A stretch of DNA of 32,000 nucleotides from Pirellula staleyi DSM 6068 (lineage in GTDB: Bacteria > Planctomycetota > Planctomycetia > Pirellulales > Pirellulaceae): assembly GCA_000025185.1 (NCBI GenBank), contig CP001848.1:1440001-1472000 (forward strand), in the 5' to 3' direction. Below are positions 6,988 through 32,000 of this stretch, in pieces. The translations under genes and the position numbers were made by a program. The notes under the pieces are model-generated. The model saw nothing but the letters and a program-made list of their open reading frames with translations. It was not told the DNA's origin and made no database searches. Numbering within the stretch: the stretch's first letter is position 1; the number at the start of each line of letters is the position of its first letter.

Positions 6988-7074
6988 CGACTTGAGGCTG
7001 AAGCCCTCACCGTTTGCACCACACCCCCGATCCATCGAGTAGCTCCTGCCGATGATTTCAACTACTCTCTAGTT

Positions 7075-9699: not shown

Positions 9700-9701
9700 G
9701 C

Positions 9702-12355: not shown

Positions 12356-12423
12356 AACAAACTACGTCGCTCCTGCGCTGGGTTGTTCGGCCACCAAATA
12401 CCAACCATGACGAGAATCCAACG

Positions 12424-15143: not shown

Positions 15144-15938
15144 TTACTCCACCTTAGCCAAGAGTGGCAGTCGTTCACGAGTCGATACTACTACCCCGCC
15201 TGGCTTTTCGATGGTAATGGCGAACATGAAGGGGTCTTGGACATATAGCTTCGCATTGATTGGGATGATGACTTCTTCGGTTGATGTGATATCGAACACC
15301 CCGCCATCAATCGGCGTCTTGTCACTCTGATTTTTGTCGAAAATCCAGAGCTGATACTGTTCTTTGGTGGGCGTGTTTACCGGCAACCCTCGAAAGCGCA
15401 TGAACCCCTGTTGCTGCGGAGCACTCCAGACCACGTCGCCTGTTGCACCATCGCTGGGCGTAGGCCCTGGAGACCATTTTGCTTGCACAAGGCCTTGATT
15501 CGCAGCGATCAATTCCGCTCGCAGTTGAGCGACGTCAGGGCGTACTGTGTCCGTCGGTCGGTTAGCGATCCAAGTAAAAACCGCAAGCATCAGGCAGATC
15601 GCTGAAACAAACCAAGGGAGATAGTTTTTTCCACGAAGCGTCGTTGCCGGGTAGGTGGAGGGTTTGGCTAACGAGACAACAGGCTTTGCATCCAACTCTT
15701 GCGAGGCTCGAATTCGAATCGCTTTGCGCAGATGTTCCGGCAGTGGTTCCGATTGCGTGTCCGACCAAACCACATCAAGGGAAGCGACCACCGTGTCCAA
15801 CTGATTGAGTTCTTCGGCAGTGATTTCACGGGTCAACTCGTCGTACTCCGTTTTTTCTTCTGCGGTCAGGCCAAACAGCAGGTGTGCCGTCTGTAGATCT
15901 TGCCAGCGATTCGCGTCCGGGGTTGGGTGTTTGCTCAT
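15144..15938 (-). CDS. Membrane anti-sigma factor with a C-terminal RskA (anti-sigma-K) domain
   Basis: ATGA overlap with the sigma gene at 15935-15938. One TM helix, YLPWFVSAICLMLAVFTWI. RskA-type extracytoplasmic domain reads EQYQLWIFDK...PIDGGVFD...FAITIEKPGGVVVSTRERLPLLA. No H-x3-C-x2-C zinc motif in the N-terminus. Confidence 0.85.
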   Translation of the reverse strand: MSKHPTPDANRWQDLQTAHLLFGLTAEEKTEYDELTREITAEELNQLDTVVASLDVVWSDTQSEPLPEHLRKAIRIRASQELDAKPVVSLAKPSTYPATTLRGKNYLPWFVSAICLMLAVFTWIANRPTDTVRPDVAQLRAELIAANQGLVQAKWSPGPTPSDGATGDVVWSAPQQQGFMRFRGLPVNTPTKEQYQLWIFDKNQSDKTPIDGGVFDITSTEEVIIPINAKLYVQDPFMFAITIEKPGGVVVSTRERLPLLAKVE

Positions 15939-16501
15939 AGCGCTTCGACTCCTTCAAGACGCCGCTGGCTGCGGACTTGCATGCAATTTCGGAGTTGTAA
16001 CAACCCACGCCGTGCGTGCGTCTTTACCGTCCCCAGAGCTAGCCCCGTTTGTTCGGCAATTCGCGATTGCGGCAAGCCATGATAGATGGAGAGTTCGAGT
16101 ACTTTCCGTTCGTCGCTCCTTAGTCCCTCGAGGCAAACCACGGCACGCGCCCCTTCCTCGGCCAATTCCATGTTTGACGTTTGCGGGGGAGCCGCATATT
16201 GCAACGCGAGTTCGTCGATCGGTTGGGATTCCAGTTCGCGGCGCGATTTACGCAGCCGATCGATCAATCGACGACGGGCGAGCATGGCCACGAAGTTCGG
16301 TTCACTGGCGAGGTCTTCGCGAAACCGATCCGCATTTTTCCACAAGTCAACGAAGATCTCTTGTACGGCGTCTTCTGCATCGGCTACCGAGGAGGAGAGT
16401 CGGCGGGCAAGCGACCAGACAAGGCCACCATATCGGTCGATACATTCGTCAACCGCCCGGGTATCACCACTGGCAATGCGTGTTAACAGCGGCACTTGCA
16501 A
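15935..16501 (-). CDS. ECF (group 4) sigma-70 family RNA polymerase sigma factor
   Basis: Region 2 is DAEDAVQEIFVDLWKNADRF. Region 4 HTH is LPQSRIAEQTGLALGTVKTHARRGLLQLR. TTG start at 16501 with GGAGG 5 nt upstream. Confidence 0.9.
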   Translation of the reverse strand: MQVPLLTRIASGDTRAVDECIDRYGGLVWSLARRLSSSVADAEDAVQEIFVDLWKNADRFREDLASEPNFVAMLARRRLIDRLRKSRRELESQPIDELALQYAAPPQTSNMELAEEGARAVVCLEGLRSDERKVLELSIYHGLPQSRIAEQTGLALGTVKTHARRGLLQLRNCMQVRSQRRLEGVEAL

Positions 16502-16531
16502 ATCAACCTCCTCTCACAAAGCGTGAAATGA

Positions 16532-16561
16532 GGCGAGGTCGGTAAGCATACCAACCTCGCC
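16532..16561 (-). terminator. Stem-loop between the fasciclin gene and the sigma gene (terminator-like)
   Basis: On the minus strand: GGCGAGGUUGGUA-UGCU-UACCGACCUCGCC, a 13-bp stem with one G-U pair. It begins 27 nt after the fasciclin stop and is followed by UCAUUUCACGCUUUG. The tail is only moderately U-rich. Confidence 0.5.
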
Positions 16562-16587
16562 ATGGTTTTCCACGATCGAGCTGCCTA

Positions 16588-17073
16588 CTACTTGGGCAGG
16601 ATCACCGCATCAATTACGTGAATAACTCCGTTGCTGGTCTCAATGTCGGTGTTCACAACATTGGCACCATCGACACTCACCTTTCCCTCGTTAACCGCAA
16701 TCTTCACCGCAGAGCCTTGCACGGTCTTGGCCTCGGTGAGCTTCACAACGTCTTTGGCCAAAACTTTCCCCGGCACAACGTGATAGGTCAGAATGGCAAC
16801 CAACTTTTGCTTGTTCTCGGGCTTCAGTAACGATTCCACTGTTCCTTGGGGAAGCTTGGCAAAAGCTTCGTCGGTCGGTGCGAATACGGTGAACGGCCCC
16901 TTGCCCTTCAGGGTTTCAACGAGGTCGGCCGCTTGCACAGCAGCGACCAGCGTCTTGAAGCTACCAGCTCCTACCGCCGTATCCACAATATCCTTCTGGT
17001 CCTCGGCAACTGCCAATACCGAGGCTCCCAAAACAACAACTAACGACAAGACACTGGCAACAAACGATTTCAT
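16588..17073 (-). CDS. Secreted single-domain fasciclin (FAS1) protein
   Basis: Signal peptide [26 protein letters not shown]1 motifs are [38 protein letters not shown] and [13 protein letters not shown]. Confidence 0.92.
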
Positions 17074-17502
17074 GTTCAGATTCCTTTTCTCAGTCGTACA
17101 AAGTTTTCAGGGTGAAAAAACGATTCCGTCGACACTTCTGAGCGGCTCGTAAGGTTATTCGCAGAACATTGGCCGGCGGATTCAAAATAAAATCGAAAAA
17201 CAACTGCTTGTCACGGATTCAACGACGGACCCCCACCCCTCGCCGCCGCGTGATAGATCACTGCTTAGTAGCTAAGGCAACGACGGTTGTTTCATGCGTA
17301 CTTGAACAAGCCGAGCAAGAGCCCCTTGTCATGAAAAAAGTTTCCTCAACCCTTTTCCTTGTCCCAAGGTCAAACGAAATGATCGGCTATTTTCTGGAAA
17401 AACCATTTTTTTGAATCCGCGATCTTGATTCCCGCGAACACTTTATCGTGCCCCACTTGGGGGTCAGACAGAAAGACCAAACAACCAAGCGGAACCACGT
17501 AA

Positions 17503-19530
17503 ATGAAAACACTACTGAAATCACTCGCTGTAATTGTTGTCATGGCAAGCCTGGTAGCGGCACAAGAAAATGCAGCCAAGCCAGCCATCGTCGATACCAC
17601 TGGTGAAGAGGCTTACGCAAAGCTTAAGGGAGGCCGTGCCGGGGAGGAGCGTGAGTTCGAGATCGCGCCCGGTGTAAAGATGAAGTTCGTCTGGTGCCCG
17701 CCTGGTGAGTTCGTGATGGGGAGCCCGCCCTCCGAGGAGCGCAGGGAAACCAGAGAAGCTCAGGCCAAAGTCACCCTGAGCAAGGGCTTTTGGATCTCAA
17801 AAACCGAAGTGACCCAGTCGCAGTGGACGGCGGTGATGGGGAGCAATCCACTGGATGGCATAGGCCCCTACGGCAAGCCTCACCCCGAGAAGAACAAAAG
17901 TCCCCATCTCCCTATCGTGGGCGTCAGTTGGGACGACGCCCAGGTGTTTATGGAAAAGGTGAATTCCACGCTTGGGAGCGAGGATGGCGGAAAGATGTCT
18001 TTGCCGACCGAAGCGCAGTACGAATACGCGGCGCGAGCGGGCGAGACAGGAATGTACCCCGGAGGCAGTCTGGATGAGGTGGCGTGGCACGATGGCAACA
18101 GCGGCGGTTATCCAAAACCGGTAGGCACGAAGAAGGCGAATGCCTGGGGCCTGCACGACATGAACGGGAGTGCCTGGGAGTGGGTTCAGGATTGTTACTT
18201 CGAGGAATTGCCGAGCGGAACGGATCCGATTGCCAAGGAAACAGGTCCCGATCGGGTGATCCGGGGCGGCTGCTGGTTCAAGGAAGCCACCCGCTGCAGA
18301 CTGGCGACCCGTAGCTATCGGTGGCAGGGGGCGAGTCAATGCTTCAGTATCGGGTTCCGGATGGTTCGTAATAGCTGGCCGGTGGAGGTTTCCAGGGCAG
18401 CCATCGACCCCGAGATTAAAGGTCAAAACGTCACCAAGGTCTCCTACAAGGGTTCATCTTCCGAGCAGTCGTTTGAGCAGACCGGACCCAAGAGTTGGAA
18501 GAGCGGGAAAGCAGTCTACAACGAGGTGAAACGCAGCGAGTGGAATGTGCATCTCCAGCGGGCCGCTGAAGTCGACGAGCGAGTGCAAATCGACCTCTCC
18601 CAAATGACGATTCATTTTCGTGGTCAGGGGCCGAAAGAGGTGCTCCCGATCTTGAGTGCGTCAAAACAGCTTTCTGCCGCAGCCGAGGCGGCGATAGAGC
18701 AAGCTCGACTGAGCAGTGCCGAATCCGCAGAGTCACGGGCTGATCAGGGAATTACCAACAGCATTGGTATGAAGCTGGTGCCGATCGCTAAGGGAAAATT
18801 TCAAATGGGCTCGCTGTATAGAGAAGAGGGTTACCAGTTCGCAGAGCAACGGCACGAAGTCACACTCACTCGGCACTACTACCTGGGCGCTTTCGAGGTG
18901 ACTCAAGCCCAGTATGCGAAGCTGATGGGCAACAACCCTAGTAAATTTCAAGGAGACAATGTCAATAACGTTGATAGCTCGAATCATCCCGTCGATCAGG
19001 CTTCGTGGGAGGACGCTGTCGAATTCTGCAAGAGGCTTTCAGAGTTGCCCGAGGAGAAGGCGGCCGGTCGGGTGTATCGCTTACCGACGGAGGCGGAGTG
19101 GGAGTACGCCTGCCGAGCTGGTAGTCGCGCCCCTTTCGGGTTTGGAGGGCTGGAATTAGCTGACGACTACGGCTGGTTCTCTTCGAATTGTAAAGGCATA
19201 TCGCAGCCGGTCGGCAAGAAGGAGCCGAACGCCTGGGGTCTGTATGACATGCACGGCAATGTGATGGAGTGGTGCAGCGACTGGGCCGGTGATTACCCCG
19301 AGGGCCCGGTCAGCGATCCCACCGGCCCCAAGGAGGGCTTTAGCCGAATGATCCGTGGCGGCGCTTGGTTGACGCCCGCAATGTTAGGGAGGTCAGGGAA
19401 CCGGGCCTTTCATTTCCCTTCTGATACTCGCTCCGACTACGTCGGCTTCCGCGTGGCCCTGAGTTCCCCAGAAATGTCCAAGCAGTCGGCTCCGTCGCAA
19501 GACAAGTCAAGCGGAGCCGGGCGGAACTGA
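17503..19530 (+). CDS. Secreted protein with two FGE/SUMF1-family (formylglycine-generating-enzyme-like) domains separated by a ~125-aa linker
   Basis: Signal peptide. Domain 1: VSWDDAQVFMEKVN, LPTEAQYEYAARAG, NAWGLHDMNGSAWEWVQD, RVIRGGCWF. Domain 2: ASWEDAVEFCKRLSE, RLPTEAEWEYACRAGS, NAWGLYDMHGNVMEWCSDW, RMIRGGAW. Confidence 0.88.
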   Translation: MKTLLKSLAVIVVMASLVAAQENAAKPAIVDTTGEEAYAKLKGGRAGEEREFEIAPGVKMKFVWCPPGEFVMGSPPSEERRETREAQAKVTLSKGFWISKTEVTQSQWTAVMGSNPLDGIGPYGKPHPEKNKSPHLPIVGVSWDDAQVFMEKVNSTLGSEDGGKMSLPTEAQYEYAARAGETGMYPGGSLDEVAWHDGNSGGYPKPVGTKKANAWGLHDMNGSAWEWVQDCYFEELPSGTDPIAKETGPDRVIRGGCWFKEATRCRLATRSYRWQGASQCFSIGFRMVRNSWPVEVSRAAIDPEIKGQNVTKVSYKGSSSEQSFEQTGPKSWKSGKAVYNEVKRSEWNVHLQRAAEVDERVQIDLSQMTIHFRGQGPKEVLPILSASKQLSAAAEAAIEQARLSSAESAESRADQGITNSIGMKLVPIAKGKFQMGSLYREEGYQFAEQRHEVTLTRHYYLGAFEVTQAQYAKLMGNNPSKFQGDNVNNVDSSNHPVDQASWEDAVEFCKRLSELPEEKAAGRVYRLPTEAEWEYACRAGSRAPFGFGGLELADDYGWFSSNCKGISQPVGKKEPNAWGLYDMHGNVMEWCSDWAGDYPEGPVSDPTGPKEGFSRMIRGGAWLTPAMLGRSGNRAFHFPSDTRSDYVGFRVALSSPEMSKQSAPSQDKSSGAGRN

Positions 19531-19708: not shown

Positions 19709-20434
19709 CTATTTTTGAATTTGAGGCTTGGGGCTTTCGAGATAGGTGAGCATGGCGTGTGCTGGAGGGTTGTTAGCATTCATCGAGAGAGCGGTGCGGA
19801 GCGCTGTTTTAGCCTCTTCGGTTTTGCCTTGTCGGGCTTTGATCATGCCGATATTGCTGTGTGCTGCTGCCGGACCAGACACGGCTGCGAAAAGATCAAA
19901 GGCCTCCTGGTACTTCATTTGCTGAGCGAGGGCGATGGCAAGATTGGTCTTGGCGCGATCGTTCGTGGCATCAAGTGCAACAGCTTGACGCAAGTGCAGC
20001 TCGGCCTCGACGAAGTTGCCGTGGCGTTTGTGGAGACAGCCATAGTCGTTCAGCAGATTGGCATCGCCGGGAAGCTTTTGAATTGCAAGTCGATACTCGT
20101 CAATCGCTTTCGAGTATTCCCCTTGACCATCGTAGAGTGCGGCGAGGATTCGCGAGTAATCAACCGCCTCAGGATCGAGTGAACGAGCCTTTTGGTACAG
20201 CTGAATTGCTTCGGTAAGATGTCCCTCTTGCACTAGCTCTCCAGCGGTGGTGAGACATAACTGCACCGTTTGTGAAGTGGGAAGCTCGTCGAGTTTTTCA
20301 GACGAGGCTTTCGAGACCACTGGTGCTGTGGGAATCGCCGGTTTTTTGAGACCCATGCTCGCGCAGCCTGTAGTAGCTGTGAGCGCAATCAGGAAGATAG
20401 CAACAGAGCTATTGGGCTTGAGCGGTATGAACAT
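19709..20434 (-). CDS. TPR-repeat lipoprotein, TadD-like by position
   Basis: ATG at 20434 gives MFIPLKPNSSVAIFLIALTATTGCAS, a lipobox. TPR-type repeats follow (AIQLYQKARSLDPE, YSKAIDEYRLAIQKLP, FVEAELHLRQAVALD, EEAKTALRTALSMN). The ORF-track start at 20545 would overlap the upstream gene. Confidence 0.75.
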   Translation of the reverse strand: MFIPLKPNSSVAIFLIALTATTGCASMGLKKPAIPTAPVVSKASSEKLDELPTSQTVQLCLTTAGELVQEGHLTEAIQLYQKARSLDPEAVDYSRILAALYDGQGEYSKAIDEYRLAIQKLPGDANLLNDYGCLHKRHGNFVEAELHLRQAVALDATNDRAKTNLAIALAQQMKYQEAFDLFAAVSGPAAAHSNIGMIKARQGKTEEAKTALRTALSMNANNPPAHAMLTYLESPKPQIQK

Positions 20435-20471
20435 CGAAGTGCTTCCTGCAAAATAGCTACGGATAGCTTGA

Positions 20472-21065
20472 CTAGTACGAACCAAAGCCACCGGAACTGC
20501 CAAAACCGCCACCCGACGATGGTTGGCCCAATTGTCCGCCGCCATTTTGCCCGCGACTGGAGTTTCCTCCAGAGAAATAGCCGCGTGTTACTCGAATCGA
20601 TTCTTGACCAAGCATCCCTTCCGCATCGGGATTGGCCGTGATCACACGCTCCTCTGCGCCAGGAACTTCCCGAATAATCAAGTACTGCATGATCTCGGCG
20701 CGGCGTGCTTCGTTCAGCGCTGCATCGCTCGTCGGTTCAATCACCACGGTGAAGGGTTCGGTTGCCATCCGCTTGGCGAGCGATAGCAAGTGGTCGCGTC
20801 CGGCATCGCTCAATTGGGCTGTCCGGTCGATCCATTCTTTCTCGTAGATAGCAAAGTCATCCTGTTCGGCGCGGGTCATCTGCGCCTGTTGCCACTGACA
20901 ACTATAAGTGCCAATGGGCTGAGGAATTGCTCCTCGCGGCACTTCGTCGCCACACTTGCCAATGCCGAGAAAATCGTCGGTACACCGACAGCCTGTCGCT
21001 AGCGAGATCGCTCCTAGGGCCAGCAAGCGACCAATCAGGCTTCGTCGGTTGATTTCGTTCGCCAT
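20472..21065 (-). CDS. Lipoprotein of unknown function with a Cys-rich N-terminus and a Gly-rich C-terminal tail, in the CpaD/RcpB position after the secretin
   Basis: ATG at 21065 gives MANEINRRSLIGRLLALGAISLATGC, a lipobox. Further cysteines are in CRCTDDFLGIGKCG and YSCQW. The tail is GGNSSRGQNGGGQLGQPSSGGGFGSSGGFGSY. An alternative TTG start is at 21110. Confidence 0.6.
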   Translation of the reverse strand: MANEINRRSLIGRLLALGAISLATGCRCTDDFLGIGKCGDEVPRGAIPQPIGTYSCQWQQAQMTRAEQDDFAIYEKEWIDRTAQLSDAGRDHLLSLAKRMATEPFTVVIEPTSDAALNEARRAEIMQYLIIREVPGAEERVITANPDAEGMLGQESIRVTRGYFSGGNSSRGQNGGGQLGQPSSGGGFGSSGGFGSY

Positions 21066-21152
21066 GTTTCTCTCACTTGCATCCTTGCCGCGAGCTTTGA
21101 TCGAAGACAAGCACCACGCTGCATTTTGCCATTACTGCTTGCAGCCATCGCA

Positions 21153-23210
21153 CTACTTAATGACCGGTGGCACCACACTAGCTGGGAGACAACCACCACT
21201 ATTCTTGTCGCAACAGCCGTACGTGGGGCCATTTGGGCCGATGATGAATTGGTCTTCGCAAAGTTTGTCACCTGCACGAATGCGAGCGAAGTCGGTTCGT
21301 ACGGTGCTGCGATAGTCGCGCATCCGACGTGCTTCGAGATGATTGCCCAGGTAGAACTCGATATCGCCTGTTTCAAAAACATCGGCACCTGGAAGTGACG
21401 GGGTGTCGCATGCCTCCAGCGGATGGACAAGCTCGGGCGTTACGAGAATCACCAACTCTTGCTCGCCAGCGGTCGTTCGGCTGAAGCCTCCTGTATGTCC
21501 GATGATTGGCAAATCACCCCAGAAAGGAACACGATCGCTGTCGGCCCCCATGTTGGTTTGAATGAGCCCAGCGACGGCGAGGGTTTGTCCTTCTCGCAGC
21601 TCGACCGTGGAATCGAACGTCCGTGAATTAAGCCCCGCAACTTGTGTTCCACCGGCACCGGCGGAACCACCAATACTGGTGCCAAGACTTTCATCGCGAA
21701 CACTCACACCTGCTGATAGCTTCAAGCGAATGCGATCGCGATCGATCACGTAGGGAGTGAATTCAATCGAAACGCCGAAAGGTACGAACACGGTTCCTTG
21801 GAGACCTGTTCCTCCTAGCCCACCGATTTGGGGCACCGGAAAACTGCCACCTGCGCGAAACGTGGCTTGTTGACCATTGAGTGTGGTGAGATTGGGCTCT
21901 GCCAGTGTTTTGGCGAGTCGTAGACTGCGAAGTGCATTGATCGCCAGGATGACTTGGCCGTTATCGAGACTGGCGAGAACATTCGAAAGATTGCCACCAC
22001 CTGCTGCGCCAAGCTGGCCCGTCAGGTTTTGAAATACGGTGGTTCCTTGATTGTTCTGCACACTGAAATTCAGCCCAATGCTGCGGGCAGCAGTGCGGTT
22101 CACTTCGGCGACGGTCACTCGCAACATCACCTGCTGTTCACCAGGAATCTGGAGCAGATTGATAATGCCTGATCGTGCCAGCAGTGCTGAGTCGACAACC
22201 GTTTGCCTTAGGAACGCTTGATCCTGATCGACCAAAGGATCGCGCTGCTGATCAATGAAAGCCGCTTGCTGAACGTACTGCACCGGCCGTCCAAACTCGT
22301 CTTGTGACTTCGTGGGACTATGTCGCGCGACGATTTGCAGAATTTGATTCGCCTCGACAGCATCGTGAGCTTGCCCCCGTACCGCCAATTGGTCGCCAAT
22401 CAAACTCAGTTGAATCTTGCTACGCGGAAATGCTTGATTAATTTCGCGCTCGAGCCCGGCATAGACCGCTTCCAGCCGCTCTTTGAGTTGCGGCTCGGGA
22501 AGCACTTTCACGAGATAACTGAGCACAATTTCTTTGCCAGTCTCAGGATCGATAACCCAAAGATTCAGTGCCGTCGAACCGACACTGCGACCAACAATCG
22601 AGATCTGCCGATCATCGATCACTTGAAAAGCAGCGATGCTCTCATCAGGCAGATAGATTCGTTTGGGGGTCTCGTTAAACACCAATATGCGAGGTCGACC
22701 GAGGATTACTTCGAGGGTGTTTTCGGGGTCGATCTTCCGCTGGATGAAGCGATCGAATCGCTGGCTGACTTCCGCTGTGGGAACGGGGTTTGCCATACCT
22801 GGTGGAAGGGGTGGCAGCAGTTCGAGACGCTGGGGGCCGGCAGCTGGTGGTGGAAGAGGCTGAGCTCCCTGACCGCTCGGAACCATCGGGACCGCTGGGT
22901 TGGCCATTGGCATCGGCGTTGGCAAGAACGGAACTTGCTGAAGCATCGGCGATGGAGCACCGGTTGCGGGTGCGAACGCAGCTGGTGGCAAAGGGGCCGA
23001 TGGAAGCGTACCAGGAGGAATCGCTGCTGGAAGCTGAGCCCCATCTTGTTGATAGGCGGCTTGCCGTATTTGCAGTACGGTATCGACCGGCGCTAGCGCT
23101 TGCTGTGCCGTCGCTGTGGTGCTCGCCCATCCGAGGAGCGTCATCAGCGCTGCAGCCGTATATTGTTGCTTGCGGCTGGCCCGGTTCTTAAGCGATGAGA
23201 TGGTCACCAC
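21153..23210 (-). CDS. cpaC: Tad/Cpa pilus secretin (CpaC/RcpA family)
   Basis: GTG start with a GAGG upstream, and a signal peptide. Pilus-formation N-terminal region: LEVILGRPRILVF...AAFQVIDDRQISIVGRSVGSTALNLWV. Secretin core: LAEPNLTTLNGQQATFRAGG...LVILVTPELVHP. Confidence 0.9.
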   Translation of the reverse strand: MVTISSLKNRASRKQQYTAAALMTLLGWASTTATAQQALAPVDTVLQIRQAAYQQDGAQLPAAIPPGTLPSAPLPPAAFAPATGAPSPMLQQVPFLPTPMPMANPAVPMVPSGQGAQPLPPPAAGPQRLELLPPLPPGMANPVPTAEVSQRFDRFIQRKIDPENTLEVILGRPRILVFNETPKRIYLPDESIAAFQVIDDRQISIVGRSVGSTALNLWVIDPETGKEIVLSYLVKVLPEPQLKERLEAVYAGLEREINQAFPRSKIQLSLIGDQLAVRGQAHDAVEANQILQIVARHSPTKSQDEFGRPVQYVQQAAFIDQQRDPLVDQDQAFLRQTVVDSALLARSGIINLLQIPGEQQVMLRVTVAEVNRTAARSIGLNFSVQNNQGTTVFQNLTGQLGAAGGGNLSNVLASLDNGQVILAINALRSLRLAKTLAEPNLTTLNGQQATFRAGGSFPVPQIGGLGGTGLQGTVFVPFGVSIEFTPYVIDRDRIRLKLSAGVSVRDESLGTSIGGSAGAGGTQVAGLNSRTFDSTVELREGQTLAVAGLIQTNMGADSDRVPFWGDLPIIGHTGGFSRTTAGEQELVILVTPELVHPLEACDTPSLPGADVFETGDIEFYLGNHLEARRMRDYRSTVRTDFARIRAGDKLCEDQFIIGPNGPTYGCCDKNSGGCLPASVVPPVIK

Positions 23211-23494: not shown

Positions 23495-23914
23495 TCAAGT
23501 TGGTAAGAAATCATCACCGGCTAGCATCGCTTGCAAGCGCGACAGTCGACGCTTTGCTTGATCGCGTTCGACCAAACTGGGCACCAAACTAAGAGCTTCG
23601 CCAATTTCTACGCTCACGCTTTCTGGCAGCACTTCCACCACGCACGCTGCTCCGCGGGTTGGCAACGTCGCGCGCCATGGTGCGACTCGTTTGATGGCGA
23701 GCACCTCCCCCTTGGTATTGAGGAAAATGGCGTCGATCGTAAACCGCATCCAGCAAGTGTGAATTGAGTTGCATGGTGTGATGAGTAGACCTGTGTCCGC
23801 AGCAAGCGACGAGCGAAATTGCAGACCCCAGAAGCGCTGGCTGAAAGTTGTCGCGAGTTCGAGATTCGCAACCAGGACGTCACCTGTTGCTCGGCGGCAT
23901 AACTTCACGAACAT
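23495..23914 (-). CDS. DUF192 family protein
   Basis: ATTFSQRFWGLQFRSSL...GLLITPCNSIHTCWMRFTIDAIFLNTKGEVLAI matches the DUF192 pattern (R-x-x-GL, PC-x-S-[IV]-HT, ID-x-x-FL). It starts 24 nt after the tadC stop. Confidence 0.8.
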   Translation of the reverse strand: MFVKLCRRATGDVLVANLELATTFSQRFWGLQFRSSLAADTGLLITPCNSIHTCWMRFTIDAIFLNTKGEVLAIKRVAPWRATLPTRGAACVVEVLPESVSVEIGEALSLVPSLVERDQAKRRLSRLQAMLAGDDFLPT

Positions 23915-23938: not shown

Positions 23939-24868
23939 CTATGGGGCGAGTCCACCCACACGTGTGAAGGAATCGGCCAGCTGAAACAGCTGTACGAAGA
24001 ACGGACCGAGTGTCCAGACAAAGAGTCCCGGCAAGAAGCAAACCACCAGCGGAATCACGCGTTTCACCGTCAACGACATCGCAAACGCGTTGGCCCGCTC
24101 GCGCCGTCGATCACGCATGTCGTCGGCCTGTCTACGCAAGACTTGCGCAATTCCCATCCCCAGCTGTTCGGCCTGCACCAGGGCCGAGACGAAGATCGAT
24201 ATCGCAGGCACCTGAATACGACTCGACAAACGCCGGAGCGATTGTGTGCGCGGACGTCCCGCCAGCAAATCGGCCTGATAACTACGAAACTCACTTGCCA
24301 GTGGTCGAACCGCCAAGCGAGTACTCTGAATGCGCTGCATGGCGGCATCAAAACCGAGTCCCGCTTCGCTAAGTGTGGCGAGCAGTTCGAGTGTCAGCGG
24401 CAGGTCTTGCTCAATCATCTCCACACGCTTCTGTCGCGAACGATTTACGACCAATGCTGGTAGCGCGGATAATCCGAGCAGGATGATCCATGGCGAAAGC
24501 CAAACAGCTGGTAGAAACACTTCGCCGACACCACCGGGGACCGCATCGGCGCTCACCACCATGACCTGGTAAAGCCCCGAGTAGAAGAAGAATGTGATTG
24601 CCACGCCGCCGAGCATTGTTGTGCCGAGCGTGAGTAAAGCGAAGAAGGTGGTCGCACCAGGCTGGCGATATCCGGCAAGGAACAACCAACGACGCAGCAG
24701 CCACATGTCGTCGAGTTGCGTGACCGGAGCAGCCCGCTCGGCATCGTCGCTCGCAAGTGCACGTCGGCGCGTTTCCTGCGATGTGCGAAGCCAGCGCCAG
24801 CCCAGATAAATCGCTGCGGCGAGGCTCGACCAGAGCAGTACCACCAGTGTAACTTGCCAAGCGTTCAT
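23939..24868 (-). CDS. tadC: Tad pilus platform protein TadC (type II secretion system F family)
   Basis: Polytopic membrane protein. The T2SS-F domain reads IEQDLPLTLELLATLSEAGLGFDAAMQRI...ALVQAEQLGMGIAQVLRRQADDMR. Its start shares 1 nt with the tadB stop. Confidence 0.88.
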   Translation of the reverse strand: MNAWQVTLVVLLWSSLAAAIYLGWRWLRTSQETRRRALASDDAERAAPVTQLDDMWLLRRWLFLAGYRQPGATTFFALLTLGTTMLGGVAITFFFYSGLYQVMVVSADAVPGGVGEVFLPAVWLSPWIILLGLSALPALVVNRSRQKRVEMIEQDLPLTLELLATLSEAGLGFDAAMQRIQSTRLAVRPLASEFRSYQADLLAGRPRTQSLRRLSSRIQVPAISIFVSALVQAEQLGMGIAQVLRRQADDMRDRRRERANAFAMSLTVKRVIPLVVCFLPGLFVWTLGPFFVQLFQLADSFTRVGGLAP

Positions 24869-25737
24869 CAGAACTTCGCCTTGCTAATGGCAGACATCCA
24901 GACAATTCCGACCGCTTGCAGCACCATCGATCCCGCTACCACACTGCCCCCCATATCGGTATTCAAAAAAGCCTGCATTTGCTCAGGACTATTGCGCCAC
25001 ACCACTGCTGCAATGAAGTAGGTGAGAAGCAGAATGAAGACTGTCGAAACTTGCGACTGGGCGATGTTCGACTGAATGCGCCTGCCAATTTCGATTCGAT
25101 CGCGAATCGTTCGGCCGGCGCTGGCAAGTGTCGGAGCAAGACTACCACCCACTTCCCAGTGAACGGCGAGCGTCGAGGAAAAGAGCAAGAACGTTTCGAG
25201 TGGAATTCGCTGCGATAAACTCCGAAACACGGCTTGTGGGTCATCTCCCAAGCGAATGCGTGCGAGCAAATCTTCGAGCTGCCCCTTGAGCGGATAACTC
25301 GACTCTTCGATCGCCGCAGCCATCGCGCTCGTCACGCCAGTTCCTGCCCCCAGCGCGCCGATCATCAGGTCAATCGCATCAGCCAACTGCCGCTCAAGCT
25401 TCGCACTTTTCATGGTTGCCAGGTAGGCTTCCACTTCGGCGCTCATCATCGCAACGATCAATCCAAAGGCAATCGAAAGTGTTAGCGAGAATCCTACGAC
25501 CAGCCAAATGATGAGTCCGAGTACCACTCCCAGCAAATAAGGAACTATTCGCAAGGGGCGTGCAAGCGGACCCGAGATCGACCACGAACTCGTGCGACGC
25601 GAGGCAGGGACTGCATCGTCGATTGCTGACGCAAGACGGCCGAGTGCGACGCTTCGCAAGCTGATCAGTTGCCACTGATAGACGACGATTGCCGCAAGCA
25701 ACAGCATGCATCCAAGAGTAAGAAAGATCGGCAACAT
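24868..25737 (-). CDS. tadB: Tad pilus platform protein TadB (type II secretion system F family)
   Basis: The T2SS-F domain reads LERQLADAIDLMIGALGAGTGVTSAMAAA...LAVHWEVGGSLAPTLASAGRTIRDR. ATG at 25737 lies 6 nt after the cpaF stop. Confidence 0.88.
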   Translation of the reverse strand: MLPIFLTLGCMLLLAAIVVYQWQLISLRSVALGRLASAIDDAVPASRRTSSWSISGPLARPLRIVPYLLGVVLGLIIWLVVGFSLTLSIAFGLIVAMMSAEVEAYLATMKSAKLERQLADAIDLMIGALGAGTGVTSAMAAAIEESSYPLKGQLEDLLARIRLGDDPQAVFRSLSQRIPLETFLLFSSTLAVHWEVGGSLAPTLASAGRTIRDRIEIGRRIQSNIAQSQVSTVFILLLTYFIAAVVWRNSPEQMQAFLNTDMGGSVVAGSMVLQAVGIVWMSAISKAKF

Positions 25738-25743: not shown

Positions 25744-27216
25744 TTAGGTGAGTGGAATGCCTGCAGATTTCCGCTGAAACAGCGACATCGGAACGCCGAA
25801 ATCTCGCTCCCGCAGTTCTTCAGCGATTCGTGGCACAATGCCGGTCGCCACAAATTCACCCACAATGCGCCGACCGACACGCGTTTTTGGTTCGAAACGA
25901 AAAATGTCCTGCATCTGCGGCGTGTTGCCTTCGAGTCCGAGCACTTCAGCGATGCTTTCGACACGTCGCACACCATCTTCATAGCGACGGATGTGGACCA
26001 CCAAGTGAAGTGCTGAGACCATCTGTTCGCGAATCGCGCGCGACGGAAGGTCGAGACCTGCCATGAGCACCATGGTCTCGACGCGCGAGAGCGCATCACG
26101 CGGGCTGTTGGCGTGTACGGTGGTCATGCCACCATCGTGACCTGTGTTGAGCGCTTGCAGCATATCGAGCGCTTCTGCGGACCGAATTTCGCCGACGATA
26201 ATCCGGTCGGGTCGCATACGCAGCGAATTCACCACCAAGTCGCGAGCTGCAATTCGCCCCCGACCTTCGACGTTGGCCGGGCGTGTTTCCATCCGTATCA
26301 CATGGGTTTGATCGAGGATGAGCTCCGCAGCATCCTCGATCGTGACGATTCGCTCGTGATCGGGAATTGCTTCGGCAATTGCGCCTAGGAATGTCGACTT
26401 GCCACTACCAGTACCACCCGAGATCAGCAGATTCTTACGACCTCGAACGGCAAGTTCCAGGAACTGCAGCATCTCGCTCGAAAACATGCCTAGTTGCTGC
26501 AGGTCCGAGCGGCGCAGTCGTCGATGGCCAAACCGCCGAATCGACAGCGTTGGTCCGTCGATAGTTACGGGAGGAAGCGTAGCATTCACACGGCTCCCAT
26601 CGGGCAATCGCGCGTCGACCATCGGCGAACTCTCGTCGATACGTCTGCCAACTCGCGCGGCGATTCGCTGAATGATACGGATCAGATGCTCGTCGTCACG
26701 AAAACGAACGGGAGTGAGTTCCAGTCGGCCGAAACGCTCGATATACACCTGCTGCGAACCATTCACCAAAATATCGGTGACAGCTGGATCCGACATCAGT
26801 GGGGCAAGTGGTCCGATCCCCAGTGTTTCTTCGAGCAGATCATCAACCAGCCGGTTCCGCTCTTCTTCATTGAGTGGCAAGTCTTCGCTGGCAAGCGTTC
26901 CCTCGACAAACTCTTTCACTTCGTCCGTTAATCGTTCTTCACTCGAAGAAAGCAAGTTACTGCGATCAAGTTCATCGAGTAAGCGTTGATGAAGTTCTCC
27001 ACGCACCACCAAATAGGCTGCGCTGCCAGCACGCTCGACGATCGATTCGGCTGCGATGCTAGGTCCTGATGAGCTCCCTCGCGAGGTGCTGCGTTTTGTA
27101 GCAGCTCGAAGTCGGTCGAGAGGCAACGTCGAACTGATGTGCGAAAGAATTCCTCGAGAGTTGACACTCCGTTCCCTACGGCTGTTGGAAGGTTCCACCG
27201 GTCCATCCCCACTCAT
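25744..27216 (-). CDS. cpaF: Tad pilus secretion ATPase CpaF/TadA (type II/IV secretion E family)
   Basis: Walker A is LLISGGTGSGKSTFLGAI. Also present are RIVTIEDAAEL, DRIIVGEIR (Walker B region) and TGHDGGMTTVHANS (His box). ATGA overlap with cpaE. Confidence 0.95.
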   Translation of the reverse strand: MSGDGPVEPSNSRRERSVNSRGILSHISSTLPLDRLRAATKRSTSRGSSSGPSIAAESIVERAGSAAYLVVRGELHQRLLDELDRSNLLSSSEERLTDEVKEFVEGTLASEDLPLNEEERNRLVDDLLEETLGIGPLAPLMSDPAVTDILVNGSQQVYIERFGRLELTPVRFRDDEHLIRIIQRIAARVGRRIDESSPMVDARLPDGSRVNATLPPVTIDGPTLSIRRFGHRRLRRSDLQQLGMFSSEMLQFLELAVRGRKNLLISGGTGSGKSTFLGAIAEAIPDHERIVTIEDAAELILDQTHVIRMETRPANVEGRGRIAARDLVVNSLRMRPDRIIVGEIRSAEALDMLQALNTGHDGGMTTVHANSPRDALSRVETMVLMAGLDLPSRAIREQMVSALHLVVHIRRYEDGVRRVESIAEVLGLEGNTPQMQDIFRFEPKTRVGRRIVGEFVATGIVPRIAEELRERDFGVPMSLFQRKSAGIPLT

Positions 27217-28490
27217 GGCAGCACCTCGCGAATCGATGGAGAGGAGCCTCGATCACTCAGGACCGATGGAGGACTAGATGCAATCGAAGATGCTACGCCC
27301 GAAGGAAGCGAAGTCGTTTCCATCTCGGTGCGCGGCATTTGGGCCAGCGATGCCAAATCGGAGATGAGCAGCTTGAGAGTTGGCCCAATTCCGAACCAAC
27401 GACTGGGATTCATCGCATAAGGTCGACCCGTGTTGGCCGCGACCATGATCCGTTTGTCGTAAGGAAGTGCGAAGTCGATGGTGCGCTCGAGTTTGGTTGC
27501 AGCATCGGTCAAGCTGAGCCCACCACTGATCGATTGAAATCGATTCACAATCACGCGCTGGCGCTCTTTCGGAAATCCAAGACCACCCAGTAGCTCTAGC
27601 AACTTGGCAGCCCCAAGCAGTGTTGGCACCACATTCTCGAGCACCACATAAGCACGATCGCTCAAGTCGAGAATTGCAATCACCACACGATCGAAAAGGG
27701 GGAAGGTGTCGACGATCACAAAATCGTAGCTGCGACGGCCCAGCGTAATGATGCGGCTTATCGACTCATCGTCGACTTCGGCAGCTTCGATGGCATCGCG
27801 CGGCGCGGCAAGGACGTGTAGTCCACTTTCATGCACCGCTGTGAGTTGACGCAAAAACATTTCGTCGAGCCGTGAGCTTTCGCGTACGGCATCGGTGAGT
27901 GTTGCCGAGGGATTCAAATCGAGCATCGAAGCAGCAACGCCGAGCTGAAGCGAAGCATCAATCAGTAGTACACGCCCTGGATAGAGTTGCGCGAGTCCAC
28001 AGGCGGAATTTACCGCCAAGGTGCTTTTGCCCACGCCACCTTTGTTACTGATAAACGAAATCACCCGCCCCAGCGGCGCGGAGACTCGCGCCGATTGCTT
28101 GCGAGTTCGGTCGAGCAGGTCTTGAAGTTCCACCGTCGAAACTGGACGCCGGAGGAAGTCTTTGACACCTGCTCGAATCGCCTCGATGACGATCGCACTC
28201 TCCGAGACATCGTTGCCAAACACATCGGGCCGAAAAACAGCAGCGACTGTCATCTCAGGCGAAATGGAGTTGAGTTCCATCGTCACACTTTTGAGTGCTG
28301 CGAGATTGCGCCCCATTTCGACGAGGACTAGATCAGGACTGCGACTTCGTGCTGCTTCGATTCCTTGGCGCGTTTCGGTGATGAAGTGAGCCACCGGCGC
28401 GCGGTCTCCCATCGCGCGAAGTGCCGATTGAAGCTCTTCGTGAAGCTTCGGATCGGCCGAGATAATCAGGATATTGGGAGTAGCAGCCAC
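27213..28490 (-). CDS. cpaE: CpaE/TadZ-like pilus assembly protein (receiver-like N-domain plus ParA/MinD-type ATPase)
   Basis: The N-terminus is CheY-like: NILIISADPKL...PDLVLVEM. Deviant Walker A is SNKGGVGKSTLAVNSA. GTG start at 28490; the start is uncertain. Confidence 0.88.
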   Translation of the reverse strand: MAATPNILIISADPKLHEELQSALRAMGDRAPVAHFITETRQGIEAARSRSPDLVLVEMGRNLAALKSVTMELNSISPEMTVAAVFRPDVFGNDVSESAIVIEAIRAGVKDFLRRPVSTVELQDLLDRTRKQSARVSAPLGRVISFISNKGGVGKSTLAVNSACGLAQLYPGRVLLIDASLQLGVAASMLDLNPSATLTDAVRESSRLDEMFLRQLTAVHESGLHVLAAPRDAIEAAEVDDESISRIITLGRRSYDFVIVDTFPLFDRVVIAILDLSDRAYVVLENVVPTLLGAAKLLELLGGLGFPKERQRVIVNRFQSISGGLSLTDAATKLERTIDFALPYDKRIMVAANTGRPYAMNPSRWFGIGPTLKLLISDLASLAQMPRTEMETTSLPSGVASSIASSPPSVLSDRGSSPSIREVLP

Positions 28491-28507: not shown

Positions 28508-29971
28508 TTAGCGCACAAGGGCGGGAGCTAGAAGTGGGTCGAGCAACTCATGGTGACGATTGAGAACTAAGTTCCAGTAATCGTCGATTTCGAGGCTCGA
28601 AGTAATTGGAGTTCGCGGAGCGATCGTTGCCATGGCATTGGTCCATGGAACATGTCCGCTGACTACGTGAATTTGTCCCGCATCTGCCTGGCCGTCAGGA
28701 AACAGAATCGCCCCGAATCCAATCACGATGTAAGGGCCGGAATCTTCGAGCCTCGCCACGATGGGAACAAACCCATAAGGAACCTGCGAGCCTCCTTCAG
28801 TTCGAAGAAGCGCCGCTTGCGCGAGAATGGTGGAAAGGCTTGTCGTGATCGACTCATCAACTTCTGGAACCTGTTCGCCAATCGAAATCGCGCGTCCTGT
28901 GCCGGTAAGTAAGTCGATGCTGACGACATGACCCAGCACATCACCCGATCCAACACGCACAAGCTGACCGTTGTTGATGGTGTATTCTGCTGCGGGGTTC
29001 ATCGGAATCGGCCATTGATCGGCATAAATCACGAGCGGCAATCGACCGGGTATGTCGCGATCAGGATTCTCGGCTGACGTTGGACGAACGCCGATCGACT
29101 TAGCGCGGACTTCAACAGTAAGTTCCTCGGGACTTGGCTCAAAAGAAAGTCGTTCGTAGGAACTGACGGCGATGGAGGTAGAACGGACCGCAATGCCACG
29201 TCCTTTCAGATCAGACGCAATCAGGCTACCACGTCCGAAGAGGTAGGGAATTGTGCCCCCTGTTGAGCCAACAGCTGGATCGAGCGTTTCATTGGTGCGA
29301 CGCATTCGCACCAGCAATCCGTTTCGATTGCCATCGATAGTCGCACCGGTCGTAAAGTCGGTTCGCGAGTAGTCGTTTTCCTCTATCGTCGCTAGTTCGG
29401 GTTTAATAGCATTTCCCGCAACAATGTCTCCTGCGGGATCATTCGACGCGCTGTTAAGACTGAGCACAGGATCGTAGACCCTCGAGGACGGAATGCTCAT
29501 CGTTTGGCTGGCGTTGAACTCGGGCGAAATTGAAGTGCCGCCGGTGAATGTCAGACGTGGCCCTGCCCCAAAGTTGCGAGCGTCAGTAGCGAGGTTGAAG
29601 TCGTCGTCGAAGGTATTGGATACATTCCGCGAAGCGGCATAGCGACTAGCGAGGTCGTACCAATCTTGCCACGCCGGATCGGTTGGATCTTGTGGCGCTG
29701 CTGGTGGAGCACCAATCGCACTAATCAGTTCTCTTCCGATCGGGTCGGAATTGTCGAGCCAGTTCTCAGGAACTTGCTGACGAAATCGCATCCCTTCGAG
29801 TGCTGCGCTGTCGGTGGCGGTTTGCATTTGCCGCTGCGTAGTGCGCACGATCCCCAGGTCGATCACCAGCGCAGCCAGCGCTAGGAGAGCAAACATCAGC
29901 AGCGCAAAGATGACGAGGGTGAAGCCCTTGCGATGGCGCGGTGTCGTACGTGAGTTGCGATGGTGGCTCAT
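28508..29971 (-). CDS. TadG-like protein with an N-terminal TadE/G-like membrane-anchor domain and a large unassigned periplasmic part
   Basis: RKGFTLVIFALLMFALLALAALVIDLGIVRTTQRQMQTATDSAALEG matches the Tad N-terminal (TadE/G-like) pattern. No D-x-S-x-S MIDAS/vWA motif was seen in the remaining ~420 aa. ATGA overlap with the upstream cpaB-like ORF. Confidence 0.7.
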   Translation of the reverse strand: MSHHRNSRTTPRHRKGFTLVIFALLMFALLALAALVIDLGIVRTTQRQMQTATDSAALEGMRFRQQVPENWLDNSDPIGRELISAIGAPPAAPQDPTDPAWQDWYDLASRYAASRNVSNTFDDDFNLATDARNFGAGPRLTFTGGTSISPEFNASQTMSIPSSRVYDPVLSLNSASNDPAGDIVAGNAIKPELATIEENDYSRTDFTTGATIDGNRNGLLVRMRRTNETLDPAVGSTGGTIPYLFGRGSLIASDLKGRGIAVRSTSIAVSSYERLSFEPSPEELTVEVRAKSIGVRPTSAENPDRDIPGRLPLVIYADQWPIPMNPAAEYTINNGQLVRVGSGDVLGHVVSIDLLTGTGRAISIGEQVPEVDESITTSLSTILAQAALLRTEGGSQVPYGFVPIVARLEDSGPYIVIGFGAILFPDGQADAGQIHVVSGHVPWTNAMATIAPRTPITSSLEIDDYWNLVLNRHHELLDPLLAPALVR

Positions 29972-32000
29972 GGTTGGGTCGTCGCTGGGAAGACCGAGAC
30001 GCGACGATCAGAACCGACCATCTGCTCCATGAACTTGAGGCTCGTGTAGGGATTGACCTCAGGAAGCTGATCGCTGGTGGCAGTCGCTTGCACCACGTCA
30101 GCGACCGATTGGCTGCGAGGAATCACTCGCAAATTGCTCGAGCTTGCCAGCACGCTTTCGAAACGAGCGACTTGCTCCAGCGGAATCGCCAGCACTGCAG
30201 AAACAACGCCTCGCAGCGGCTCTTCGTAAAGCTGTACCACTTCAACATCGCTGGCAGCAACCAGCATTTGCGTTCGACCAACGATTTCCGGCGGCACATC
30301 GTAGTTGCTCGGAAACGTCATTGGCTCGGCCGAAATCACATCGACTCGCATCTGCTGTTTGACAAGCTCAAGCCCTGCGAGCTGTTCTTTCTGAACTAAG
30401 AATCCGCGATAGCCAGGGGCGATTCCGGCCGAAATTCCCACAGCAGTGTCGGCTGGAAGAAAGTCGGACTCCAAAAAGTAGTCGCCAGGCTGTTTGTTGG
30501 TTCGCAGCACGCGACCAGCAAACAAGCTTAGATCGGTAACGATTTTCTTTTCGTTGACTTCATCGATCGAAATCGAAGTGATGGCTGGCCGAGCGACAAC
30601 GGCTCCCCACGGCTCGAGTTTTTCGAACGCTCGAACTGCCACCGTGCACAGCGGCACACTTGCCATGTTGGGAGGCGATGCTGTTGGCAAGTTCGAACGA
30701 AATGCAGCAGTGAGTTTGATTTCACTAGTCATCGCCGCTGCTTGCGCAAGGGCTTCGGCATCGCGCAAGCGAACGGCGAGGGTGAGGGATGAAATCGGAT
30801 TGGCAATCGAATTGTTCGCTCCAGCAGATTCGCTTGGCGTACGAGCAATGGCCACCACGCGCGCGTCGACCGCCAGCAGCCAGTGCTCGGCGCGATGACC
30901 AAGCGAAGTGGACCATTGCAAGTCGGTCGAACGGCTGATGACTTCTGAACTGTTGCGAGTCGTTGTCTCGTTTTCCCGGCGCGAAGTTTCCTCTGTCGTA
31001 CGCACATGCTCCAGCTTGAAACTGCCGAGCAAATCGAGGTGGTCCCCCACACTTAAATACTCAGACCCCAAGATCTGACTAGCGCTAATGACAACAGCTT
31101 GGCGATCAGGAGGAATGACACTTCCGATGCCACCTTTTGCCCCTTGTTCGGCAAGTTCCGATTCGGAGATGACAGTGCCAGCTTCGATGTCGCGATTGGC
31201 GACGCGTCCGAGCAGGAAGTCGTAAGGCACCAGTTTGGAGCGAGTGGCGGTGTCCGGGTCGTAGTAGGCGAACTCAGGGCGGCGTGTTACAGGATCGATA
31301 AAGTCTTGCTCGGTGATCCGCTGGAAGGCGGGAATGGTGCGCTTGACGAGCGGAAATGCCACGGCAAGCTTCTGTTCGGCAGGCGCTTCGCTATCGTCAC
31401 TCCCACCTTTGGCAGCTTGTCCTGATTGCGCCACCGCCATCACCGAGAGTCCCTTGTGAAGCGCCTTCTTCACGTGGGGAATGTCGGACGGAGTTAGCGC
31501 TAGAACCACTTCTTCGACCGGAATGTTTTGCACTCGCTGACCTTCGGTGAGCGAAGAGGTGGTCGACGGCTTCTGTCGAATGCGAACTGGTGTGAGCAAG
31601 ATGGCCGACTGAGCAATTGTGCGTTCCACCACTGCTTGGGGTGGATCGCTGGCCTTCGATCGCGTGACGAACTGAACACCGCTGCGGGGCTTATGCGACG
31701 GATCGAACTCGCCGAGCATGTCGTGTGGAACCGAGGCAATCAGGTCGACTTTGTCTCCCAGCTTGAGCCCGTGGAGGCCTGCAATCGAGCTGCTTTCGAG
31801 AGTCATCGACTGCATGCCGGGGGGAGTGGCGCCAGCTAAACCAGGGCGGGTTCCTTTGGGGAGAAACGAACTTTCCGTAAAGGCAAGTCCTGGGTTCTTT
31901 TCTTTCGAGACCACTCGGCCGATGATGTCGTTCACACTCATCATGGCACCACCCAGTTCGCGCACGCGGCCGATCGGAATCCGTTTTCCACCGTCGATCG
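29968..32000 (-). CDS. cpaB: Multi-module CpaB/RcpC-like pilus assembly protein, 5' end beyond the window
   Basis: The frame is open to nt 32000: ...IDGGKRIPIGRV precedes the GTG at 31965. Three segments each carry the CpaB pattern (GRV..G....ES.L, then a G-[IL]-x-x-x-I/T-PPG/APG-like turn, then a ..D-[LV]-[IL] strand). They begin at IIGRVVSKEKNPG, LLGRVANRDIEAG and FAGRVLRTNKQPG. Confidence 0.75.
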   Translation of the reverse strand, partial: IDGGKRIPIGRVRELGGAMMSVNDIIGRVVSKEKNPGLAFTESSFLPKGTRPGLAGATPPGMQSMTLESSSIAGLHGLKLGDKVDLIASVPHDMLGEFDPSHKPRSGVQFVTRSKASDPPQAVVERTIAQSAILLTPVRIRQKPSTTSSLTEGQRVQNIPVEEVVLALTPSDIPHVKKALHKGLSVMAVAQSGQAAKGGSDDSEAPAEQKLAVAFPLVKRTIPAFQRITEQDFIDPVTRRPEFAYYDPDTATRSKLVPYDFLLGRVANRDIEAGTVISESELAEQGAKGGIGSVIPPDRQAVVISASQILGSEYLSVGDHLDLLGSFKLEHVRTTEETSRRENETTTRNSSEVISRSTDLQWSTSLGHRAEHWLLAVDARVVAIARTPSESAGANNSIANPISSLTLAVRLRDAEALAQAAAMTSEIKLTAAFRSNLPTASPPNMASVPLCTVAVRAFEKLEPWGAVVARPAITSISIDEVNEKKIVTDLSLFAGRVLRTNKQPGDYFLESDFLPADTAVGISAGIAPGYRGFLVQKEQLAGLELVKQQMRVDVISAEPMTFPSNYDVPPEIVGRTQMLVAASDVEVVQLYEEPLRGVVSAVLAIPLEQVARFESVLASSSNLRVIPRSQSVADVVQATATSDQLPEVNPYTSLKFMEQMVGSDRRVSVFPATTQP

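Follow-up and report, generated by a model that had tools for sequence, protein, structure and literature searches.

The analyzed window, 32,000 nucleotides of Pirellula staleyi DSM 6068 (GenBank assembly GCA_000025185.1, contig CP001848.1, positions 1,440,001 to 1,472,000), contains on its minus strand a cpaB/rcpC-like gene whose product carries the characteristic unit of the RcpC/CpaB family three times in a single chain. Each unit, or module (M1 to M3), comprises a SAF-like domain (D1) followed by an RcpC domain (D2). Pairwise, profile and fold comparisons establish the homology of M1, M2 and M3 with one another and with RcpC. With a probability of roughly 0.55, we propose that the protein is an RcpC/CpaB alignment-complex subunit whose three tandem D1-D2 units form stacked rings and hence a longer conduit for the Tad pilus.

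Three homologous D1-D2 modules in one chain

The minus-strand frame runs from 31998 to 29968 without a stop until 29968-29970, giving 676 codons over an uninterrupted 2031 nt. An initial annotation of this DNA had described the open reading frame (ORF) as lacking an upstream stop and still open at the window edge, which is correct; its length of 665 amino acids (aa) was counted from an internal GTG and falls short of the 676 codons in the window. A database search identified a near-identical full-length protein, P0001 (799 aa; metagenome-assembled genome (MAG) GCA_002483025.1, contig DLHC01000004.1), which differs at 5 of the 676 shared residues. Other full-length homologues are 799-aa proteins with 86% identity, and ETAA8_21220 from the 9.0-Mb complete genome of Anatilimnocola aggregata has 800 aa and is 65% identical. 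Because P0001 and these orthologues are 799-800 aa long, the window lacks 123 N-terminal aa. This segment of P0001 contains the hydrophobic stretch LWMLGGLFFVLLFGAVATGATLWMAGV (residues 14-38), modeled by AlphaFold2 (AF2) as a helix at 13-37, and is predicted to provide the inner-membrane transmembrane (TM) anchor that had been expected beyond the window edge. Residue numbers below refer to P0001 unless the window protein is named. The gene is organized as follows.

29968..32000, minus strand: cpaB/rcpC-like ORF; C-terminal 676 of 799 codons plus stop, with the N-terminal 123 aa and their TM helix outside the window
31363..32000, minus strand: module 1; residues 124-335 visible (start at ~50), comprising the end of D1/SAF-like and D2/RcpC
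31450-31842, minus strand: Pfam RcpC stretch of module 1, residues 53-183 of the window protein
31729-31926, minus strand: stretch A of the initial annotation, inside module 1
31363..31422, minus strand: linker 1, residues 316-335; predicted disordered, with a predicted local distance difference test score (pLDDT) <50 at 316-333; 12% identity between clades
30652..31362, minus strand: module 2, residues 336-572; SAF/D1 at 31153-31344, RcpC/D2 at 30712-31125
30112..30651, minus strand: module 3, residues 573-752; diverged D1+D2, no Pfam match of its own
30052..30111, minus strand: linker 3, residues 753-772; predicted disordered, pLDDT <50 at 753-764; at the position of the L3 linker of RcpC (PMC12307814)
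29971..30051, minus strand: C-terminal short helix and beta-hairpin, residues 773-799; AF2 strands 778-784 and 787-793; once per chain

Homology between the modules is detected at several levels. With BLASTP, M1 and M2 align with 30% identity over 66 aa (E 6e-10), M1 and M3 with 34% over 73 aa (E 3e-12), and M2 and M3 with 22% over 91 aa (E 7e-4). Profile-profile comparison by hhalign, for which a 12-sequence family alignment (A1) was cut at residues 50-335, 336-572 and 573-799, gives E-values of 2.2e-28 (M1-M2), 1e-17 (M1-M3) and 1.1e-18 (M2-M3), the M1-M2 and M2-M3 alignments beginning at the first strand of D1 and reaching the end of D2. Identity between modules is 17-23% across the hhalign alignments and 22-34% in the short BLASTP cores. 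A CpaB with one module, P0087, matches M1, M2 and M3 separately in BLASTP (4e-49, 4e-18 and 5e-15). These comparisons uphold the initial claim of three CpaB/RcpC-like modules in one real ORF. The three 66-aa stretches A, B and C that had been delineated as the modules (residues 148-213, 385-450 and 616-681 of the full-length protein) are indeed homologous copies; they represent merely the D1/D2 junction of modules that measure ~190-290 aa.

In Pfam scans of the whole protein, RcpC (PF16976; gathering cut-off 28.8 bits) is matched in two stretches with 36.4-38.3 bits, and SAF (PF08666) once, at residues 219-282 of the window protein. M2 scanned alone retains both domains (SAF E 1.8e-6; RcpC 30.5 bits, above the cut-off), while the isolated N-terminal 172 aa give no Pfam match. 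More than one independent RcpC or SAF match is obtained, a count that had been proposed earlier as a check on the tandem architecture.

For M3, structure prediction provides the link to RcpC. Residues 573-799 were modeled in isolation with AF2 (pLDDT 80.4, predicted template modeling score (pTM) 0.66), and in a Foldseek comparison of this model with the PDB the only significant matches are chains A and B of the cryogenic electron microscopy structure of RcpC (9gzr_A/B; E 6e-8 and 6e-7). The alignment covers 190-205 columns and corresponds to the whole RcpC D1+D2 chain of 189-204 residues. The best PDB match of the full-length model is likewise 9gzr (E 1.8e-7). The link to this RcpC structure comes from fold comparison only, since a search of PDB sequences with the whole-family profile A1 yielded no match at E up to 1. 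The D1/D2 junction motif is retained in M1, M2 and M3, and each of them is modeled with a full D1+D2 fold of confident local structure.

The full-length AF2 model of P0001 (pLDDT 75.9, pTM 0.34) comprises a helix at 13-37, M1 at ~50-315, a linker of ~20 aa, M2 at 336-556, a linker of ~11 aa, M3 at 568-752, a disordered segment at 753-772 and a hairpin at 778-793. The short linker between M2 and M3 lies between strands 550-556 and 568-573. Each chain has exactly one TM helix and one beta-hairpin. Mean pLDDT values over 10-residue blocks of the hairpin region are 82 and 86 for residues 771-790 and 70 for 791-799. The C-terminus follows a family motif, roughly DP..KF.E..VGS.RR..FP, and the tails of both three-module clades, of Rhodopirellula-type two-module proteins and of the one-module P0087 are similar to it; it is less clear in distant members.

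Conservation is uneven along the chain. Between the two main clades, identity is 39-41% in M1, 24-33% in M2 and M3, and 12-18% in the linkers. The motif AGATPPGM is nearly invariant in M1 across alignment A1, and D1 of this module contains a beta insertion of ~40 aa that the one-module P0087 lacks. M1 is thus the most conserved module and, with its own insertion, appears positionally specialized. Many three-module relatives (P0008-P0015) contain a low-complexity insert of 60-150 aa, rich in Ser, Gln, Ala and Pro, within module 2 between D1 and D2 (A1 columns ~430-490). The insert, possibly a flexible spacer, is absent from the window protein.

Module number in relatives

A phmmer search of 1.84 billion cluster representatives returned 485 relatives at E up to 1e-3. 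In a set of 183 relatives, D1/D2 junction cores were counted with module-specific hidden Markov models.

1 core: 80 proteins, median length 338 aa
2 cores: 54 proteins, median length 590 aa
3 cores: 49 proteins, median length 859 aa
4 cores: 0 proteins

We also scanned one genome per GTDB species for the peptide patterns AGATPPGM[RQ] and IIGRV.., which are family-specific and so bias the scan towards this lineage. It yielded 47 loci, ~29 with three cores in one ORF and ~15 with two. With three modules in 49 of 183 relatives and the one-ORF version in ~29 of 47 species-level loci, the rarity implied by the initial annotation is not supported. One-, two- and three-module versions are all found in similar loci, and the three-module architecture is common in Planctomycetota databases.

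The organism labels of the relatives retrieved by this family-specific search are all from Planctomycetota with one exception, and include Pirellulaceae, Planctomycetaceae, Fuerstiella, Thalassoglobus, Roseiconus, Rubripirellula, Novipirellula, Rhodopirellula and Blastopirellula; the labels Thermoguttaceae and Planctomicrobium are taken from cluster names. The exception is a MAG contig labeled 'uncultured Chitinophaga sp.' (locus L009, CAZLOQ010000118.1), which carries a three-module CpaB within a planctomycete-type tad locus and is probably mis-binned or mislabeled.

The shorter relatives share both ends of the protein. P0087 (338 aa; L049 8001-9017 and L050 5104-6120) has a TM helix, one module resembling M1, and a comparable tail motif. 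Its locus has the order A24 peptidase, TadE, CpaB, TadG-like, CpaE, CpaF, TadB, TadC, DUF192, secretin, and its CpaF is 69% identical to the CpaF of the window. Two-module proteins, for example Rhodopirellula baltica RBSH_05411 (590 aa), consist of M1, an M3-like module and the tail. What varies among the members inspected is, at the sequence level, the number of modules between the shared M1 and the tail: none, one M3-like module, or M2 plus M3. The longest relative, P0058 (1117 aa, JGI metagenome), has three junction cores and two SAF-like half-repeats at 656-728 and 735-807, and possibly contains more than three D1-type domains.

The same survey bears on the reading of the gene as an artefact, in which adjacent cpaB paralogues were fused by a frameshift or assembly error, or the assembly was duplicated. 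In two draft MAG loci (L018 9980-12470 and L037 9917-12866) an overlapping ORF of its own encodes module 3. The gene can therefore look broken in draft data; the split itself looks like a frameshift, caused by an error in the draft assembly or marking a pseudogene. Against an artefact in the window, the frame is unbroken over its whole 2031 nt, and 29968-32000 contains no direct nucleotide repeat, in line with what had been noted initially. The three-module layout in one ORF recurs in ~29 species-level genomes from independent assemblies, including that of Anatilimnocola aggregata. Separate paralogues would each carry their own TM helix and hairpin, whereas each chain here has one of each. We consider an artefact extremely improbable, and the lack of a DNA repeat together with the same architecture across genomes rules out assembly duplication or gene fusion.

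In the literature on RcpC/CpaB, on Tad and planctomycetes and on tandem or domain architecture, of which our coverage is incomplete, we found no description of a multi-module CpaB. Database annotation of the multi-module proteins is limited to 'hypothetical' or 'SAF domain-containing'.

Possible arrangement of the modules in the alignment complex

In RcpC from Pseudomonas aeruginosa the domains are ordered TM-D1-D2-L3-hairpin, and twelve subunits assemble into a periplasmic ring that measures ~15 nm across and encloses a pore of ~5 nm; within it, D2 makes a C12 ring, D1 lies towards the inner membrane and the hairpin is placed above D2. Both the hairpin and oligomerization are needed for binding to the N-domain of the secretin RcpA (PMC12307814). 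In the stacked arrangement that we propose, each of the three modules would oligomerize laterally like RcpC D2, into a dodecameric ring with a pore of ~5 nm. The chain would run from the inner membrane to the secretin and the three modules would form three stacked tiers. A single-module chain starts on the inner-membrane side and ends on the secretin side, so the simplest order of a tandem repeat would have module 2 on top of module 1 and module 3 on top of module 2. Three tiers would give a longer periplasmic pilus conduit than a one-module CpaB, and the secretin N-domain would serve as the docking site of the hairpin that follows module 3. This hairpin is predicted at 778-793 after the disordered residues 753-764; its counterpart in RcpC binds the secretin.

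The stacking geometry draws on analogy with RcpC and with MCE proteins, which by their design offer a direct precedent for tandem domains that stack as rings. MlaD, PqiB and LetB have an N-terminal TM helix and one, three and seven diverged tandem domains, respectively, each domain forming a ring; the tandem domains are 17-28% identical, and their number sets the stacked rings and the periplasmic reach (bioRxiv 10.1101/748145). Several features of the planctomycete protein would fit a stack, and with it the multi-storey spacer on which the initial annotation had speculated. Its model has a single N-terminal anchor and a single C-terminal hairpin, and the predicted linker from M2 to M3 is short. 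In the series of one-, two- and three-module relatives the extra modules appear between shared ends, which suggests a longer stacked channel across the envelope. At the sequence level, a specialized M1, and conserved modules joined by unconserved linkers, also agree with such an arrangement.

Several observations weigh against this reading. Scanned alone, M1 reaches 25.4 bits for RcpC, under the 28.8-bit cut-off, and isolated M3 has no match in Pfam. The relative placement of the modules is undefined in the monomer model because its pTM is 0.34. Twelve is divisible by 1, 2 and 3, and one 12-module ring built from 12, 6 or 4 chains would be as neat as a stack. In the loci compared, secretin length is unchanged with module number (~650-830 aa as stop-to-stop ORFs in both classes), so it gives no independent sign of a distance constraint; a compensating shortening of the secretin as modules increase is not seen. 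Finally, according to Boedeker et al. 2017, the cytoplasmic membrane is kept near the wall by complexes that span the envelope, so that a wide periplasm at the machine is not required.

As the main alternative, the modules of one chain might lie side by side in a single ring, as a pseudo-oligomer in which four three-module or six two-module chains would take the place of twelve one-module chains. The height of the ring would then be constant, and only the number of chains would differ. The beta-clamp and PCNA are a precedent for the same ring being built from different numbers of chains. The divisibility of twelve and the undefined module geometry of our model are compatible with this arrangement, as are the alternating A/B conformers and D1 dimers of the RcpC dodecamer (PMC12307814) and the first inter-module linker, which with ~20 disordered residues could reach a neighboring position. 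However, TM anchors and secretin-binding hairpins would be reduced to four or six, facing a secretin of 13-14 subunits. If the geometry is RcpC-like, the ~11 residues between M2 and M3 look short for a path from the outer-membrane-proximal end of D2 back to the inner-membrane-proximal start of the next D1. The far higher conservation of M1 and its own insertion would be unexpected for equivalent ring positions, and suggest that the modules see different partners; the 60-150 aa insert within module 2 of many relatives also speaks against a same-plane ring. On balance we regard a same-plane ring as unlikely.

We judge it similarly improbable that only one module forms a ring, either M1 or the hairpin-adjacent M3, with the others serving as a tether or adaptor. 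Their task might be to stand in for a CpaI-like bridge, to bind peptidoglycan or to interact with the large TadE/TadG-like pseudopilins of the locus. In favor of this reading, conservation is lower in M2 and M3 than in M1, and M3 has diverged so far that Pfam no longer detects it. In Caulobacter the separate adaptor CpaI bridges CpaB and the secretin, and many Tad systems lack CpaI (PMC13170226). No CpaI-type product is annotated in the locus listing, and the pil_N domain common to CpaI and the secretin is detected in the secretin only. A tether role sits less well with the D1+D2 fold, confident local structure and junction motif that all three modules keep, and with the MCE tandem domains, which are equally diverged and all form rings (bioRxiv 10.1101/748145).

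If the modules do stack, the Tad conduit of Planctomycetota might itself be modular, with one, two or three tiers set by the number of tandem RcpC modules and serving as a natural ruler of the distance between the membranes. We put this forward tentatively, as somewhat short of an even chance. Why extra length would be required is a matter of speculation: the envelope may be wider at the machine, or the additional modules may replace a CpaI-type adaptor. The enlarged periplasm invoked in the initial annotation may be a plausible background (PMC5394234, PMC12673574). More speculatively still, extended Tad machines could be the trans-envelope 'press-stud' complexes under the small crateriform structures with thin fibers (PMC5394234).

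The recognition of RcpC/CpaB as the Tad alignment complex dates only from 2025, and the mapping of its position in situ from 2025-26. With its one-, two- and three-module versions in similar loci, the natural series lends itself to experiments on what determines the length of a trans-envelope pilus conduit, and would show whether ring-forming modules stack as MCE domains do. Given the unusual planctomycete envelope, it also provides a testable molecular handle on the connection between inner and outer membrane at these pilus machines. Should the modules lie side by side, the series would show ring stoichiometry evolving by internal duplication.

The tad locus and related systems

Downstream of cpaB, the window contains the following genes of the locus.

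28508..29971, minus strand: TadG/TadE-like pseudopilin, 487 aa; Pfam Tad PF13400 E 4.7e-8
27213..28490, minus strand: CpaE/TadZ-like ParA/MinD ATPase, 425 aa; Pfam AAA_31, CbiA
25744..27216, minus strand: CpaF/TadA secretion ATPase, 490 aa; Pfam T2SSE E 5.8e-65
23939..25737, minus strand: TadB and TadC platform proteins, 289 aa and 309 aa; Pfam T2SSF in both
23495-23914: DUF192 protein between tadC and the secretin gene; conserved locus member
21153..23210, minus strand: secretin (CpaC/RcpA-like), 685 aa; Pfam T2SS-T3SS_pil_N 163-236, Secretin 426-595
19709..21110, minus strand: 212-aa protein without a Pfam match and 278-aa tetratricopeptide repeat (TPR) protein, downstream of the secretin; gene order as in L001

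In L001, the locus around P0001, the upstream genes encode a pilin-like protein, an A24 prepilin peptidase and a 336-aa TadE-like protein, which gives the overall order pilin, A24 peptidase, TadE, cpaB, TadG-like, CpaE, CpaF, TadB, TadC, DUF192, secretin, TPR. By gene content the locus is complete for a Tad (type IVc) pilus and contains no CpaB other than the one described here. The cpaB stop overlaps the ATG of the TadG-like gene (ATGA at 29968-29971), suggesting translational coupling. The pseudopilin-like proteins are unusually large (TadG-like 487-506 aa; TadE-like 336 aa, L001 8909-9919), and Pfam recognizes only a short N-terminal Tad/TadE motif in them. The secretin of the locus is the expected partner of the C-terminal hairpin of CpaB. 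It has ~160 aa before the T2SS-T3SS_pil_N domain and ~190 aa without a Pfam match between this domain and the Secretin domain. The 212-aa protein (20472-21110), encoded immediately downstream of the secretin and with conserved counterparts in related loci, and the TPR protein are possibly secretin accessory or pilotin-like candidates.

The rest of the window (50-15129 and 15144-19530) encodes three sulfatases, one of them possibly interrupted at 1889-3366 by insertion of a SASA esterase ORF, a 3-keto-disaccharide hydrolase, a GFO/IDH/MocA oxidoreductase, and a PSD/PSCyt (DUF1585-1595) and DUF1552 gene pair; the Pfam PSD/PSCyt families are, to our knowledge, planctomycete-specific, in accord with the names of the homologues. 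The planctomycete origin assumed in the initial annotation is correct. The same region holds genes for a DUF6288-SASA protein, a homocysteine S-methyltransferase, an extracytoplasmic function (ECF) sigma/anti-sigma pair, a fasciclin protein and a 675-aa protein with an FGE-sulfatase domain.

An RcpC domain, a SAF-like D1, the predicted TM anchor of the orthologue and the surrounding tad locus place the protein in the RcpC/CpaB family. Like RcpC of P. aeruginosa and CpaB of Caulobacter (PDB 9gzr; PMC12307814, PMC13170226, PMC12637624), it is encoded alongside CpaE, CpaF, TadB, TadC and a secretin, matches RcpC and SAF in Pfam, and has 9gzr as its best and only significant fold match in the PDB. 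In contrast to these proteins, it contains the D1-D2 unit three times in tandem and measures 799 aa instead of ~300 aa, with an insertion of ~40 aa in D1 of M1 and an M3 below Pfam detection.

FlgA, the chaperone of the flagellar P-ring, shares a SAF-type beta-clip domain and appears among weak Foldseek matches (3vjp, 3frn, 3tee). These are non-significant (E 0.05-0.16), the neighboring genes are tad genes with no flagellar context, and FlgA lacks a TM-anchored tandem architecture; membership of that family was rejected.

Close counterparts are the one- and two-module CpaB proteins of Planctomycetota represented by P0087 and RBSH_05411, which resemble it in locus order, N-terminus and M1 and, where the C-terminus was inspected, in the tail motif. 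Unlike them, the protein described here has two modules (M2 and M3) between M1 and the tail, where they have none or one.

The resemblance to the MCE proteins MlaD, PqiB and LetB is one of design logic, as proposed here, and is a functional analogy only. The folds are unrelated: Foldseek comparisons with MlaD and LetB are non-significant (E >0.2, probability <0.2) and no Pfam MCE match is found, so homology was discarded. MCE proteins are hexamers that carry lipids, whereas the CpaB modules would line a pilus conduit. If the stacked arrangement is correct, the planctomycete series of one, two and three modules would be the pilus-machine counterpart of the MlaD/PqiB/LetB series.

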